Positions 587-4,772 of a stretch of DNA of 4,772 nucleotides are shown here, piece after piece. A program made the position numbers and the translations under genes. The notes beneath the pieces are model-generated. The model worked only from the letters and a program-made list of their open reading frames with translations, did no database searches and was not told the DNA's origin. Source of the DNA: a virus (taxonomy: Duplodnaviria > Heunggongvirae > Uroviricota > Caudoviricetes); the IMG/VR virus record IMGVR_UViG_2645727810_000002. The stretch is one strand, 5' to 3'. Position 1 is the stretch's first letter. Every line of letters begins with the position of its first letter.

Positions 587-1069
587 TTATTTGATAAGAA
601 GTGAAGGTTTCCCAACTTTGAGTTGAGCACCGGGGATATTTATTCCTGCTTTTAGTTGGTGTTTGATTGCCAGTTTGTCGGCTTTAATTGTCGTTTCAAA
701 CTCAACGTATTCAGGAGGAAGGGCGCTTGAGTCGATTATTTCTACAATTTCTGACGGTTTGCGGATTGTTACCTGGTGAATACCTGCTCGAATCTTTTTC
801 TTGCCAACCATTTCAAGCGATGCCGCTATATACGCCATAATGCTGTCAATCTTATTTTGAATTACTGCGGCTCGCTCATTCAGCGACCTTGCCTCTTCCT
901 TGAGGCGTTCAGCATAACCAGATTCATTTTTAATAATGGCAAGAAGTTGCTCTATTTTATCGGCAAATTCTCCTTCCATGCCTTCTATTGTGTCAGCAAT
1001 CATCTCTGGTTCTAAATCTGAATCCATCAATTTTGCGTATTCATTGGCAATTTCATACAGTTTGCTCAC
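587..1069 (-). CDS. Gp157-family-like coiled-coil phage protein (recombination-associated; possible host-nuclease inhibitor)
   Basis: ORF-track 587..1075 uses a TTG at 1075 that abuts the SD GGAGG (1080..1076); GTG at 1069..1067 has correct 6-nt spacing, so start set to 1069. The 5' end overlaps the recT 3' end by 17 nt. Helical, charged N-terminal half and beta-rich C-terminal half, ~160 aa, adjacent to recT, as typical for Siphovirus Gp157 (PF05565) or Mu Gam-like proteins. Family call is from memory. Confidence 0.6.
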   Translation of the reverse strand: MSKLYEIANEYAKLMDSDLEPEMIADTIEGMEGEFADKIEQLLAIIKNESGYAERLKEEARSLNERAAVIQNKIDSIMAYIAASLEMVGKKKIRAGIHQVTIRKPSEIVEIIDSSALPPEYVEFETTIKADKLAIKHQLKAGINIPGAQLKVGKPSLLIK

Positions 1070-1964
1070 TGGCAACCTCCAGTTTCGCTTTGCATTCTAT
1101 GTAAATGGCTTGTACGTTCTGCTGCAATTTCATTCCAGATGTCAGGCGATATGCTTCTGCAAAATATCGCTTCAAATCATCCATGTTTTCTGCATGAGCC
1201 ATTTCATCGCAAAGAAGTTGTGCTTTATCCATTATTTCCTGCTGGCGTTTCCGTTCATCTTCGCGGATATCTTCCTCTGATTTGTGCGGCATAACTGGTT
1301 CAGTCCACACACCTTCTTCTTCGTTTAGTACGTGAATAGCACTATCAAGACGTGATGCCTTAGGCCAATACTTGCTTGCACGCTTTACGACCGTCTTTCG
1401 CGCCATCTCATTCCAGTGATTTACCCATGGTCCTTTATCGCTGAATGCTGCCTTGCTTGTTTTCCTTACAGCCTCAATTTCAGCCAGACTCATCTCTTCC
1501 GTTAGATAATCACCTGCTGGCGTCTTAACTGTGCAGTAAACACCAACAATATCACCACGATCACCGAAGGCGTTGTATTTATGGGTTGGTGCTTTATCAA
1601 GCCCGTTTGACTCATAGGTATCGTTAGCTTGAACAAGTTTTGCCTGACCCCATGAGATAACACCAGACTCCATTGCAATATGGAGCAATCCCATATAACT
1701 GATATCAAGGCACACCATGCCGTCGCGCGGAACCAGATAAGCCAGTTTGCTAGCCGGGTTTAAGGTGATACCGATCGCCGCAACATTGATGATGGCGTTC
1801 TGTGCGCTGGTTGGATTTGCCAGTGCTGTTTTAGCCAGGTAATCATTTTTCTGGAAATACTGAATTGCAAACTGGCTTTCCTTAGCCCATGTCACCGTCT
1901 GTTCAGTCAATGCTCCGCAGAATAACTGCTCTTGCTGTTTAACGAATTCAACGATATTGCTCAT
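1053..1964 (-). CDS. recT: RecT-family single-strand annealing protein (phage recombinase)
   Basis: 303-aa ORF. Segment GPWVNHWNEMARKTVVKRASKYWPK closely matches the conserved RecT motif (E. coli Rac RecT ...GPWVTHWEEMAKKTAIRRLFKYLP...). SD GGAG ~7 nt upstream of ATG 1964; start overlaps the upstream stop (ATGA). Confidence 0.9.
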   Translation of the reverse strand: MSNIVEFVKQQEQLFCGALTEQTVTWAKESQFAIQYFQKNDYLAKTALANPTSAQNAIINVAAIGITLNPASKLAYLVPRDGMVCLDISYMGLLHIAMESGVISWGQAKLVQANDTYESNGLDKAPTHKYNAFGDRGDIVGVYCTVKTPAGDYLTEEMSLAEIEAVRKTSKAAFSDKGPWVNHWNEMARKTVVKRASKYWPKASRLDSAIHVLNEEEGVWTEPVMPHKSEEDIREDERKRQQEIMDKAQLLCDEMAHAENMDDLKRYFAEAYRLTSGMKLQQNVQAIYIECKAKLEVASEQTV

Positions 1965-2272
1965 GCTGCTTCTCCATAAACGTGTCTGCGTTTGAATATT
2001 GCGAAGGCATATTCAGCCTTAACTCTTTCGGTTATTGCATCCCAGAACCATTCAGCGGCTTTTTCCTGATAGTTACAGTCATAATCTTCCAGCCAGTCGA
2101 TAGCGTCCTTAGTGTGTTCATCTGGTTTATATGAGCGAAGCATTTCGCTTATTGGGTCGCAACGTTTGCAGAGGCGATCAACTTCACTGTTGATTCGTTC
2201 GTAATCTTCATCAGTAAAACTTGCGATTATTTGCGATATTTCACGCTCATCTTTCAGAGTCAGAATCATCAT
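1961..2272 (-). CDS. Hypothetical small acidic protein (103 aa) translationally coupled to recT
   Basis: ATG-ATG at 2272..2267 with SD AGGAG (2281..2277), 4 nt before the first ATG; stop overlaps the recT start. About 24 D/E versus about 15 K/R; contains a CKRC motif plus one more Cys. No family recognised. Confidence 0.65.
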   Translation of the reverse strand: MMILTLKDEREISQIIASFTDEDYERINSEVDRLCKRCDPISEMLRSYKPDEHTKDAIDWLEDYDCNYQEKAAEWFWDAITERVKAEYAFAIFKRRHVYGEAA

Positions 2273-2357
2273 CTTTCTCCTGTTCTTTGTGCTGATTGAG
2301 CATTTCTTTCATCTGAAGAATGAATTCTTCGTCTGACCAGTTATCTGTAAAACTCAT
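2247..2357 (-). CDS. Possible small ORF (36 aa) overlapping the cIII stop and the start of the 103-aa gene
   Basis: ATG at 2357..2355 overlaps the cIII-like stop (ATGA); weak SD-like AAGG ~6 nt upstream; hand translation MSFTDNWSDEEFILQMKEMLNQHKEQEKDDDSDSER; stop at 2249..2247. It overlaps the next gene by 26 nt in another frame, so may be spurious. Confidence 0.2.
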   Translation of the reverse strand: MSFTDNWSDEEFILQMKEMLNQHKEQEKDDDSDSER

Positions 2358-2524
2358 GGACGGCCTTGTTGTTTCAAAATATCCCAAAGCTTTTCGAGCA
2401 AACTTTTCATTCTTGGTTGTTTAAAGTCTGCTCCGGTTAAAATATTTTTTCGTGAATGCTGTACCGATAAAATCGGGTTGAAAGGGCGAACCGATGCCGC
2501 CCCTGCAATAGCGAACTGTTGCAT
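2354..2524 (-). CDS. cIII: CIII-like protein (putative FtsH/HflB protease inhibitor stabilising CII)
   Basis: ORF-track 2354..2629 has an implausible N-terminal extension. The internal ATG at 2524..2522 has SD AAGGAG with 6-nt spacing, giving 56 aa MQQFAIAGAASVRPFNPILSVQHSRKNILTGADFKQPRMKSLLEKLWDILKQQGRP. The MQ.AIAG start, the SLLE-containing segment and the size resemble lambda CIII as I recall it. Position in the leftward operon matches lambda cIII. Confidence 0.55.
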   Translation of the reverse strand: MQQFAIAGAASVRPFNPILSVQHSRKNILTGADFKQPRMKSLLEKLWDILKQQGRP

Positions 2525-2595
2525 AGGATGCTCCTTCTGTTTGATTGCATAACGAAAACGCCTCGAGTGAAGCGTTATTGGTATGCATATAAAAA

Positions 2596-2615
2596 GGCCC
2601 TCACACTGGAGGGCA
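2596..2615 (-). terminator. Candidate rho-independent terminator inside the leftward operon (tL1-like position)
   Basis: On the minus strand: GCCCTC-CAGTGT-GAGGGC (6-bp GC-rich stem, 6-nt loop) followed by CTTTTTATAT. Sits in the 220-bp gap between the 51-aa ORF and the cIII-like gene. Confidence 0.45.
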
Positions 2616-2676
2616 AAGAAGATTTCCAATAATCAGAACAAGTCGGCTCCTGTTTAGTTACGAGCGACATTGCTCC

Positions 2677-2704
2677 GTGTATTCACTCGTTGGAATGAAT
2701 ACAC
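2677..2704. repeat. Perfect 9-bp inverted repeat with 10-nt spacer (GTGTATTCA-N10-TGAATACAC)
   Basis: Read directly from the sequence; intergenic, upstream of the terminator hairpin in the direction of leftward transcription. No flanking T-tract, so not a canonical terminator; a protein-binding site or RNA stem-loop is possible. Confidence 0.5.
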
Positions 2705-2743
2705 AGTGCTTATTCGTCATGCATTTCAGGTATTTCTTCGTAT

Positions 2744-3150: not shown

Positions 3151-3322
3151 ATTCACCTCTGTTGTTTATGCCAAAAATATCTTTTTCTATATCAAAAAGC
3201 TGCTTTGCTTTTTGTGACTAAAAGCAAAAAAGCCTTCTCGCTAATGAGCAGCATTGCCGTTCATCCTGAACCCGCCGCGCTCCCGACGCATGGTTTAATG
3301 TCGCGCCGTTCGACATGGCTTA

Positions 3323-3351
3323 ACTATATTCAAAGCTATTATTGCTGTAAA
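3323..3351 (-). promoter_or_regulatory. Candidate pL-like early-left promoter
   Basis: Minus strand: -35 TTTACA (3351..3346), 17-nt spacer, -10 TATAGT (3328..3323); predicted start near 3316, giving a ~165-nt leader before the ATG at 3150. Overlaps operator-like motifs. Confidence 0.45.
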
Positions 3352-3364
3352 TAGCTATAGTTAT
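3326..3364. promoter_or_regulatory. Candidate OL operator sites (two copies/variants of the ATAGCT-NN-AGCTAT motif)
   Basis: 3351-3364 ATAGCTATAGTTAT (one mismatch to the palindrome consensus) and 3326-3339, which reads ATAGCTTTGAATAT on the minus strand (good left half, degenerate right half); centres ~25 bp apart; they overlap the candidate pL -35 and -10. Additional AT-rich palindromes nearby (AGTTAT-AAA-ATAACT at 3359-3373; AATAAC-N7-GTTATT at 3367-3385). Confidence 0.4.
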
Positions 3365-3443
3365 AAAATAACTCCTTTGGTTATTTAGTCATTGATATCT
3401 AATGTAATTTATTTTTCTTGTATGTGAGATTTGGTGTTTTTTG

Positions 3444-3476
3444 GGCAATAAAAAACCCGCAAAAAGCGGGTTTGTT
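3444..3476 (-). terminator. Rho-independent terminator immediately downstream of cI (hairpin is bidirectional, strongest for the minus-strand transcript)
   Basis: Stem AACCCGC / GCGGGTT with AAAAA loop (3454-3472). On the minus strand the hairpin is followed by TTTTTTATT; on the plus strand by TTTGTTG. Lies ~15 nt after the cI stop. Confidence 0.75.
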
Positions 3477-4222: not shown

Positions 4223-4228
4223 TCGTAC

Positions 4229-4257
4229 AACCTATAGCTACAGCTATTATTAGTCAA
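4229..4257 (-). promoter_or_regulatory. Candidate pRM-like promoter giving a leaderless cI transcript
   Basis: Minus strand: -35 TTGACT (4257..4252), 17-nt spacer, -10 TAGGTT (4234..4229); the cI ATG (4222) lies ~6-7 nt downstream of the -10, and there is no SD. Same arrangement as lambda pRM/cI. Confidence 0.45.
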
Positions 4258-4296
4258 ATACCTAAAGCTATTTACTTTCTGAATAGCTTTGGCTAT
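4234..4296. promoter_or_regulatory. Tripartite operator (OR-like): three 14-bp inverted repeats, consensus ATAGCT-NN-AGCTAT
   Basis: Site at 4234-4247 ATAGCTACAGCTAT (perfect 6+2+6 inverted repeat), 4258-4271 ATACCTAAAGCTAT (1 mismatch), 4283-4296 ATAGCTTTGGCTAT (1 mismatch); centres 24 and 25 bp apart, between divergent cI and cro. Confidence 0.6.
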
Positions 4297-4299
4297 TAT
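4271..4299 (+). promoter_or_regulatory. Candidate pR-like promoter for cro
   Basis: -35 TTTACT (4271-4276), 17-nt spacer, -10 TATTAT (4294-4299). The third operator overlaps the -10/spacer and the second overlaps the -35. The cro SD AGGAG (4318-4322) is followed by ATG 4331. Confidence 0.5.
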
Positions 4300-4330
4300 T
4301 CTGATTGTGAATTCAGCAGGAGTTATTTTT

Positions 4331-4561
4331 ATGGTCAACGAGGCTATTAAAGCGGCTATTGACTCAGTAGGAAGTCAGCAAAAGTTAGCTAATGCCTGCG
4401 GTGTTAAGCAGCCGTCTGTATGGGCTTGGTTGCATGGGAAGAAAAGGGTATCCGCTGAAAATGCCAAGCGCATTGAAATGGCTACCAATGGAAGCGTCCC
4501 TGCATACCTGATTCGCCCTGATTTATCCGCTTTGTTCCCCAATCCGAACAAAGCAGCTTAA
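4331..4561 (+). CDS. cro: Cro-like / YdaS-family HTH transcriptional regulator (76 aa)
   Basis: ORF-track 4289..4561 starts at a TTG inside the operator region; ATG 4331 with SD AGGAG 8 nt upstream is the likely start. HTH-like QQKLANACGVKQPSVWAWLHGKKRVSAENAKRIE; small size; divergent from cI. Confidence 0.8.
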   Translation: MVNEAIKAAIDSVGSQQKLANACGVKQPSVWAWLHGKKRVSAENAKRIEMATNGSVPAYLIRPDLSALFPNPNKAA

Positions 4562-4574
4562 TAAAGCAAATTTT

Positions 4575-4626
4575 TATACCGAACGGCCCGGTATACGGTC
4601 GGGTGCCCGGCGTGGTCATGGATGAC
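4575..4626 (+). promoter_or_regulatory. Stem-loop and palindrome cluster just downstream of cro (candidate nutR/tR1-like or protein-binding element)
   Basis: TATACCG-AACGGCC-CGGTATA (7-bp stem, 4575-4595) followed by a GC-rich stretch and the palindrome GTCAT-GG-ATGAC (4615-4626). No adjacent T-tract, so not a canonical intrinsic terminator. Confidence 0.35.
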
Positions 4627-4680
4627 TGTCAATGGTGCACAATAAAAAACCAAATTATTTACCTATGGAAATAGTAAGAA

Positions 4681-4772
4681 ATGGAACAAACAAGTTACAG
4701 CAAACTATCACAGCGTGACGTTGATCGCGCAGAAACAGATTTACTCATCAACCTGTCAACGCTTACCCAGCG
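4681..4772 (+). CDS. Hypothetical protein, N-terminal fragment (possible CII-like regulator; continues past the right edge)
   Basis: ATG 4681 with weak SD-like AAGAA upstream; frame open to the window end (MEQTSYSKLSQRDVDRAETDLLINLSTLTQ...). Follows cro as cII does in lambda. Identity not established. Confidence 0.35.
   Translation, partial: MEQTSYSKLSQRDVDRAETDLLINLSTLTQ

Follow-up and report, generated by a model that had tools for sequence, protein, structure and literature searches.

A 56-residue peptide in the cIII position of a lambdoid phage belongs to a third CIII-like sequence class and is a candidate FtsH inhibitor

The cIII gene of lambda-like phages encodes a small peptide that protects CII, the activator of lysogeny, against FtsH, a protease of the host. 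The window studied here, a stretch of 4,772 nucleotides of viral DNA, is early-region DNA of a lambdoid phage or prophage, with its left part read on the minus strand, and the question it raises is whether a small ORF in that part is the cIII gene of this phage. The original prediction held that a 56-aa CIII-like FtsH inhibitor was masked by a mis-extended ORF and that, together with a CI/Cro switch and a possible CII-like ORF at the right edge, it pointed to a lambda-type lysogeny decision circuit. The coordinates of the features discussed are collected in Table 1.

Table 1. Features of the early region within the 4,772-nt window
Feature	Position	Strand	Evidence and remarks
Gp157-like gene	587-1075		
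RecT recombinase	1053-1964		
Downstream 36-aa ORF (MSFTDNWSDEEF...)	2247..2357	minus	PHROG 17766 at 2.2e-14; ATG overlaps the stop of the cIII-like gene
cIII-like CDS	2354..2524	minus	ATG 2524-2522, 56 aa, TGA 2356-2354; ORF translation and PHROG 550 match
5' extension of the six-frame ORF, 35 codons	2525..2629	minus	Non-coding cIII leader; holds both terminators
Shine–Dalgarno sequence AAGGAG	2531..2536 (2536-2531)	minus	6-nt spacer CATCCT before ATG 2524; direct reading
Proximal terminator-like hairpin	2548..2576, stem 2576-2557	minus	AACGCTTC-ACTC-GAGGCGTT with TTCGTTATG tail; -9.9 kcal/mol
Distal intrinsic terminator	2588..2614, stem 2614-2597	minus	GC-rich; GCCCTC-CAGTGT-GAGGGC with CTTTTTAT; -10.7 kcal/mol
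HK022-type putL-like element	3215..3312	minus	98% identical over 98 nt to HK022 28210-28307
pL-like sigma-70 promoter	3323..3351	minus	TTTACA-17-TATAGT, 10/12 matches; consensus match only
CI-like repressor, 243 aa	3491..4222	minus	HTH_3 and Peptidase_S24
Cro-like regulator, 76 aa, divergent from the CI-like gene	4331..4561	plus	YdaS_toxin and P22_Cro HTH matches
HK022-type putR-like element, 3' of cro	4577..4669	plus	96.8% identical over 93 nt to HK022 29457-29549
Lambda-type cII, 5' end (first 30 codons), cut by the window edge	4681..4772	plus	Phage_CII N-terminus, E=7e-4, 30 aa

Two start codons were considered for the gene. The six-frame ORF at 2354..2629 on the minus strand encodes 91 aa from a TTG at 2629, and no Shine–Dalgarno sequence was found upstream of that TTG in the sequence. 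For the internal ATG, the sequence agrees with the prediction of a strong Shine–Dalgarno sequence, and translation from there gives a protein (MQQFAIAGAASVRPFNPILSVQHSRKNILTGADFKQPRMKSLLEKLWDILKQQGRP) that begins MQQFAIAG and ends KQQGRP. The reading in which the 91-aa ORF is the true product has an uninterrupted reading frame in its favor and is carried by several deposited records, including mEpX1 (AFM76007) and the 224-member cluster P0003, but its extension is open only in close relatives having the same DNA. Among more distant homologues, the 57-aa proteins of Hafnia phage Pocitis76, Erwinia phage vB_EhrS_49 and Yersinia phage vB_YenM_30.14 use the equivalent ATG, with in-frame stops 5–14 codons 5' of it. 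The extension also crosses two terminator hairpins, and its homologue in lambda is non-coding, namely the cIII leader. The shorter version, a 171-nt CDS, is the NCBI PGAP call in E. coli 55989 (WP_001183771.1, "hypothetical protein") and is preferred by many other gene callers. The 91-aa model was rejected, as the upstream stops, the terminators and the leader homology effectively refute it and leave it a negligible chance of being correct; the 56-aa model with its start at 2524 is secure, to the point of near certainty, and the 35-codon extension is a leader without a protein role. In correcting the gene model the original prediction was right; the masking it saw stems from the six-frame listing and from some deposited annotations with the over-long model, and masked is an overstatement, PGAP already calling the 56-aa CDS.

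The leader itself is recognizable as that of a cIII gene. The long ORF does read through a terminator hairpin, as had been noted, and it crosses two terminator-like hairpins rather than one; between 2200 and 3500, three terminator-like sites were observed against 1.1 expected. The distal terminator is the rho-independent terminator annotated within the "cIII" CDS of mEpX1. Window positions 2587-2709, which cover it, are 97.6% identical to lambda 33923-34045, and positions 2501-2586 align to lambda 33443-33522, the non-coding DNA directly 5' of lambda cIII together with the opening codons of that gene. Being homologous to two separate stretches of lambda, the leader represents the lambda arrangement minus ea10. 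The proximal hairpin is nearly identical to the sequence directly upstream of cIII in both lambda and HK022, and the stretch AAGGAGCA...ATGCAA is held in common with the lambda cIII translation-initiation region, such that hairpin, Shine–Dalgarno sequence and first codons (ATGCAA) all nearly match those of lambda. HK022 has the same two terminators upstream of its cIII and the same potential for 5' mis-extension, in its case to a 79-aa ORF. The suspicion that the N-terminus of the long ORF is not real protein was thus borne out by its homology to the leader of cIII in lambda and HK022, which is non-coding.

The RNA around the start codon was compared with the lambda cIII thermoregulator (Rfam RF01804, Lambda_thermo). 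No match was obtained at E<=10 in 2400-2700, whereas the lambda control scored 88.5 bits, and the predicted minimum free energy fold of the cIII-like start consisted of three small local hairpins at 25, 37 and 45 °C. With no RF01804 match and only small local hairpins, translational control of the lambda type is unsupported for this gene, which differs from lambda cIII in this respect. The Rfam scans of the whole window and of 2400-2700 otherwise returned sub-threshold terminator look-alikes only (Yfr1, Trp_leader, isrK, RyhB and others).

The DNA on either side places the gene in the position that cIII occupies in HK022. Upstream, 168 nt (2531-2698) match HK022 26433-26600 with 97% identity; downstream, 54 nt (2304-2357) match HK022 26105-26158 with 98% identity. 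Between these flanks HK022 holds its own cIII, with the product MMHFQLAGSGVMSAFYPHESELSRRVKQLIRAAKKQLEALCAMK, and additionally kil, whereas the window holds the 56-aa gene alone; the difference is a typical lambdoid mosaic cassette exchange. Lambda likewise differs from the window in having a kil gene that overlaps the 3' end of cIII and in having ea10 in the leader. The stop codon of the cIII-like gene overlaps the start of the next small ORF in an ATGA at 2357-2354, making translational coupling of the two likely, and the same MSFTDNW gene start lies 3' of the cIII–kil cassette in HK022. The cassette between the conserved leader and the MSFTDNW gene is therefore occupied in the window as it is by cIII in HK022. 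A small gene neighboring the cIII-like gene in the window bears a frameshift.

The window also carries genes of a lambda-type lysogeny circuit. Both the CI/Cro switch and the CII-like ORF at the right edge of the original prediction were identified by domain matches. The CI-like gene is named "XRE family transcriptional regulator" by PGAP on DNA that is 99.6% identical, and the truncated cII shares 83% identity with a full-length protein that PGAP names "CII family transcriptional regulator" and that itself scores 4e-34 on PF05269. Phage_CII is present in the window and in all four of the other genomes examined that carry the 56-aa class, and the order CI-Cro-CII(PF05269)-O also occurs in three distant phages of Hafnia, Erwinia and Yersinia. 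Like lambda cIII, the 56-aa gene belongs to the pL operon and precedes the recombination genes, and it stands behind a cIII leader in a phage with a lambda-type CII; mEpX1 and the phages of Hafnia, Erwinia and Yersinia share this layout. Nowhere in its complete genome does mEpX1, whose 56-aa gene is identical and is accompanied by a lambda-type cII, carry a cIII of the lambda or HK022 class. We consider it very probable that the 56-aa ORF is the cIII allele of this phage, a true but divergent relative in the same cassette.

Early leftward transcription would begin at the pL-like promoter near 3323. An N-like ORF was looked for between this promoter (3351-3323) and the terminators, and none was found. 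In its place the window carries two elements of the HK022 put type, the right one of which resembles the left. In HK022, putL follows closely on pL, and putR follows the pR start at a distance of about 270 nt (PMC9378689); the positions of the putL-like and putR-like elements agree with that description. Expression dependent on lambda N was rejected for the window on both grounds, the lack of an N-like ORF and the presence of HK022-type put elements instead. Antitermination of the put type in place of N, a context shared with HK022, was missed by the original prediction. Judged by their sequence, the put elements would yield an RNA that makes RNA polymerase termination-resistant without an N gene, and polymerase could then pass the terminators at 2614-2597 and 2576-2557 and read through into the cIII-like gene.

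For the protein itself, similarity to known CIII families was examined at several levels. Neither the 56-aa nor the 91-aa product matched PF02061 or PF08134 at E<=1, and no NCBIfam model matched either product at the same threshold; NCBIfam labels lambda-class proteins "protease FtsH-inhibitory lysogeny factor CIII." In the controls, lambda CIII scored 1.5e-30 on its own family's model and HK022 CIII scored 2e-30 on PF08134. The two CIII classes of lambda and HK022 were recognized by Kobiler et al. (PMC1838920), and HK022 CIII is classed as a cIII homologue in the lambda CIII literature (PMC1838920). Failure on PF02061 is not disqualifying, since HK022 CIII fails that model as well (E=0.17); five of 28 members of the family of the 56-aa protein touched it weakly, below threshold, with a best E of 4e-4. 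The remote-homology cluster PHROG 550 ("CIII anti-termination"), by contrast with Pfam and NCBIfam, matched the 56-aa protein over residues 1–56 with E=1e-22, and it is also matched by lambda CIII (1.4e-31) and HK022 CIII (2.6e-13). The grouping with CIII comes from PHROG 550 only.

At its N-terminus the protein does begin like lambda CIII, as had been claimed, with MQQFAIAG against MQYAIAG. BLASTP of the 56-aa protein against lambda CIII gave E=0.025, and profile–profile comparison (hhalign) of the close family with the lambda family gave E=2.7e-8 with 95% probability over 46 columns. With a broad family profile, the first 14 residues alone aligned to lambda CIII (E=1.3e-8). The N-termini of the 56-aa protein and HK022 CIII align ungapped over 17 residues (E=0.002), and past about residue 20 the two bodies are unrelated in sequence. 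The codons of A-I-A-G vary synonymously among distant phages, and the constraint therefore acts at the protein level. The conserved N-terminal residues of CIII, to which Kobiler et al. assigned no function (PMC1838920), are present in the 56-aa protein, including the two glycines (M-x-x-A-I-A-G...G).

Likeness to lambda CIII is also seen at the C-terminus, where L-x-D-I-L-x-Q-x-G-x-P occurs in both proteins in addition to the N-terminal M-Q-x-A-I-A-G, and the two are of similar size (54 aa in lambda and 56 aa in the window). In a manual alignment, KSLLEKL|WDILKQQGRP against lambda ESLLERI[TRKLRDGWKRL]IDILNQPGVP gave 10/17 identities with a single 11-residue gap. When the N-termini were removed, hhalign recovered this alignment in part (KSLLdrL~ESLLeRI, E=2.6e-4, 42% probability). 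When 50,697 phage records were searched by tblastn with the 56-aa protein, no lambda-class cIII came up at E<=0.01, and among the phages listed for lambda CIII as the query in turn (E<=1) none carried the 56-aa class. About 22 additional residues make up a conserved core peculiar to the family, F-[DN]-P-I-x-S-I-Q-H ... N-I-L-T-[GS]-A-D-F, to which nothing in lambda or HK022 CIII corresponds. On the alignment to lambda and HK022 CIII, by which the original prediction was to be judged, the answer is mixed: the N-terminus, the C-terminus and PHROG 550 speak for CIII, and the Pfam and NCBIfam models and the family core speak against. On the sequence comparisons, the resemblance to lambda CIII is greater than chance, and the protein is placed in a third CIII sequence class beside those of lambda and HK022; its similarity to lambda CIII is firm where the AIAG motif is concerned, and over the essential helix (residues 14–37) it is weak or ambiguous.

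That helix bears most directly on function. Region 14–37 of lambda CIII (ESLLERITRKLRDGWKRLIDIL) is essential and sufficient for activity, and S17A, R24A, L26A, R27A and R32A each abolish activity (PMC1838920). In the alignment with the 11-residue gap, S17 alone is kept of these five, and R24 to R32 fall in the gap. An alternative hhalign alignment keeps S17 and pairs three of the others conservatively (L26M, R27K and R32K), at the cost of two insertions that place a G and a P inside the helix, and with the broad family profile region 14–37 does not align at all. The counterpart of the lambda helix would thus be either shortened by ~11 residues or interrupted by insertions, and to judge from these alignments the essential region is not recognizably conserved in the 56-aa protein.

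An AlphaFold2 (AF2) model built with the family alignment was of low confidence overall (pLDDT 65), with a disordered N-terminus, weak helices at 17–26 and 31–34 and a better-supported helix at 37–53 (about KSLLEKLWDILKQ; pLDDT about 85 at residues 41–50). A lambda-class control treated by the same procedure gave a single helix at 18–38 with pLDDT 83–88, which coincides with the published essential region (PMC1838920). The maximum 18-residue hydrophobic moment of the window helix was 0.60, a value equalled in 90/2000 shuffles (p about 0.045), and that of lambda was 0.83, equalled in 0/2000. An amphipathic α-helix is therefore predicted in both proteins by AF2 and hydrophobic moment, and that of the window is shorter and weaker than that of lambda. 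The models are very small, with low pLDDT values (65–67). Searching PDB sequences with the family profile gave no meaningful match (chitin deacetylase, E=0.5).

Based on its position, its N-terminal motif and its short amphipathic helix, the 56-aa peptide probably inhibits FtsH and thereby stabilizes CII, a reading to which we assign a probability of roughly 0.6. Translation would start from the strong Shine–Dalgarno sequence and ATG, probably coupled through the ATGA to the next small ORF, and would yield a peptide whose flexible N-terminus bears M-x-x-A-I-A-G, the signature of CIII, and whose C-terminal part forms an amphipathic helix (about 37–53). On the model of CIII in lambda and HK022, the helix would bind FtsH/HflKC as a competitive inhibitor and substrate, so that lambda-type CII would be transiently stabilized and the decision pushed toward lysogeny. 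[quoted passage not shown] FtsH inhibition is best described as a reasonable inference, because similarity over the essential helix is weak or ambiguous and no Pfam or NCBIfam CIII model matches.

The same observations leave some room, at odds we put well below even, for a peptide that sits in the cIII slot and does a different job. Mosaic recombination would have kept the leader, the translation-initiation region and the AIAG segment, and the body (the FNPILSVQHSRKNILTGADF core and the short C-terminal helix) would act on another host target, or on FtsH/HflKC by a different mechanism; possible targets are another protease or a membrane or division factor, as for the neighboring Kil-type peptides. 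The lack of any equivalent of the family core in lambda or HK022 CIII speaks for this, as do the absence of a Pfam or NCBIfam CIII match, the loss of significant homology to lambda CIII past residue 14 with the broad profile, and the fall of four of the five lambda-essential residues into the 11-residue gap under one alignment. The N-terminal variants MQQFA.AG and MTFAISGG are, moreover, common to the lambda class and the 56-aa class, which suggests intragenic recombination just past the N-terminus. Against it, the gene fills the exact HK022 cIII cassette between flanks of 97–98% identity and is the sole cIII candidate in a complete temperate phage (mEpX1) with a lambda-type CII, and its C-terminal KSLLEKL...DILKQQGRP is similar to the lambda essential helix at either end. 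Divergence alone is also weak evidence, given that HK022 CIII counts as a cIII homologue (PMC1838920) in spite of its E of 0.17 on PF02061. A related proposal concerns the whole third class, about 35 clusters in which the core replaces most of the lambda essential helix: that it acts on FtsH/HflKC through a different interface, or on a different target, while keeping the cIII leader and AIAG. We hold this to be unlikely, slightly more so than a different job for the window peptide.

The distribution of the gene bears on whether it could instead be a decaying, non-functional cIII remnant with a disrupted essential helix. The non-conservation of the lambda essential region and the frameshift in the neighboring small gene would fit such a remnant, but the 56-aa protein is 100% identical in mEpX1, HK140, HK542, SPN9CC and others, amounting to dozens of E. 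coli and Salmonella phages, and 334 of 5426 complete E. coli genomes carry the gene. Homologues of 53–63 aa occur across Enterobacterales, and those from several genera with 40–60% identity have retained start and stop as well as length and motifs, as purifying selection predicts. Decay is therefore highly improbable, and FtsH inhibition by a divergent CIII is the preferred reading. An exhaustive HMM search of 1.84 billion representatives yielded 35 representative clusters (50% identity), and all 23 new sequences examined from them belonged to the 56-aa class with the family core, none being a lambda-type CIII.

Naming in the databases is uneven. In mEpX1 (JQ182727) a 276-nt ORF is annotated as "putative cIII protein" with the terminator annotated within the CDS, and the 91-aa cluster counts 224 member sequences against 159 for the 56-aa cluster. 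RefSeq records of HK140, HK542 and SPN9CC use "CIII anti-termination," a Hafnia homologue is called "CIII-like protease inhibitor," and the RefSeq name in E. coli is "hypothetical protein" (56 aa). A search of the literature on the 56-aa class, including cIII of mEpX1, HK140 and HK542, found no functional or experimental study. Since the identical protein is already public, also as a putative cIII, the finding is an ordinary one, and its main value lies in annotation: the 334 of 5426 E. coli genomes carry the gene under "hypothetical protein" only, and some phage records hold the 91-aa model, which is too long and has a terminator within its CDS. The class is covered by neither of the two Pfam CIII families nor by NCBIfam, and functional confirmation would permit a new family model. 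Functional data would also show whether it is the shared AIAG motif at the N-terminus that matters in CIII or the short amphipathic helix at the C-terminus; in other respects the 56-aa gene is an expected component of a lambda-like lysogeny circuit.

The leader of the cIII-like gene (2501-2709, minus strand), which carries two terminator-like hairpins, joins two separate lambda stretches, 34045-33923 and 33522-33443, and lambda ea10 is therefore cleanly absent. HK022 differs in carrying an IS903 insertion, positioned exactly at the equivalent of window 2690-2698; the 9 bases at either side of this insertion overlap, resembling a target duplication. At the other end of the cIII-like gene, no kil gene was found (window 2247-2357). 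Whereas the HK022 cassette holds both cIII and kil, the window is without the latter, and where kil overlaps cIII in lambda, a short acidic ORF overlaps the cIII-like stop instead; this ORF likewise lies 3' of the cassette in HK022. Coordinates of these and the following features are collected in the table.

Features of the window around the cIII-like gene and the immunity region
Feature	Position	Strand	Remarks
Acidic ORF, 36 aa (MSFTDNWSDEEF...), phrog_17766	2247-2357	-	Start overlaps cIII-like stop (ATGA)
ORF, 37 aa	2710-2823	-	phrog_10407 positions 40-62
ORF, 51 aa	2744-2899	-	phrog_10407 positions 1-42
putL-like element, HK022-type	3215-3312	-	98% identity to HK022 28210-28307
Imperfect inverted repeats, AAAGCTAT...ATAGCTTT / ATAGCTA.AGCTAT units	3325-3370 and 4225-4300		Read directly from sequence
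Strong intrinsic terminator, AAACCCGC-TTTTT-GCGGGTTT then T-run	3453-3473	-	Directly 3' of cI stop
putR-like element, HK022-type	4577-4669	+	96.8% identity to HK022 29457-29549

The two overlapping ORFs at 2710-2899 both match a single 62-aa protein family. In E. coli PEC122 the 62-aa gene is intact, and aligning the window with it suggests one additional base near 2740-2750, due to a frameshift mutation or to an error in sequencing.

Although the put-like elements on both sides of cI/cro match those of HK022, the remaining immunity region is not that of HK022; the same immunity region is found in the E. coli PEC122 prophage. No N-like gene was found 3' of pL within the window, and in PEC122 an annotated 27-aa "antitermination N peptide" lies directly beyond the segment common to both. 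The inverted repeats, which flank cI on both sides and adjoin the pL-like and pR regions, probably represent operators OL and OR of the window's immunity type. Weak, sub-threshold Rfam matches to Yfr1, Trp_leader, and isrK are terminator look-alikes, attributable to the intrinsic terminator after cI.

Two long proteins, P0122 (516 aa) and P0139 (667 aa), matched only the last 16-18 positions of the window-class family profile (the KSLL...L.Q.G.P helix), with 7 and 4 repeated stretches matching this helix, respectively, and are probably unrelated repeat proteins.

N-terminal variants were compared in CIII alignments A1 and A2 (proteins P0031, P0064, P0065, P0075, and P0092), whereby identical variants were found in both the window class, a third class of cIII-slot peptides, and the lambda class (PF02061-type CIII). 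The N terminus MQQFAFAG occurs in lambda-class P0064 and P0065, and MTFAISGG is found in window-class P0031 as well as lambda-class P0092. Because these variants are common to both classes, the alignments suggest that intragenic recombination immediately 3' of the N-terminal motif has produced hybrid alleles.
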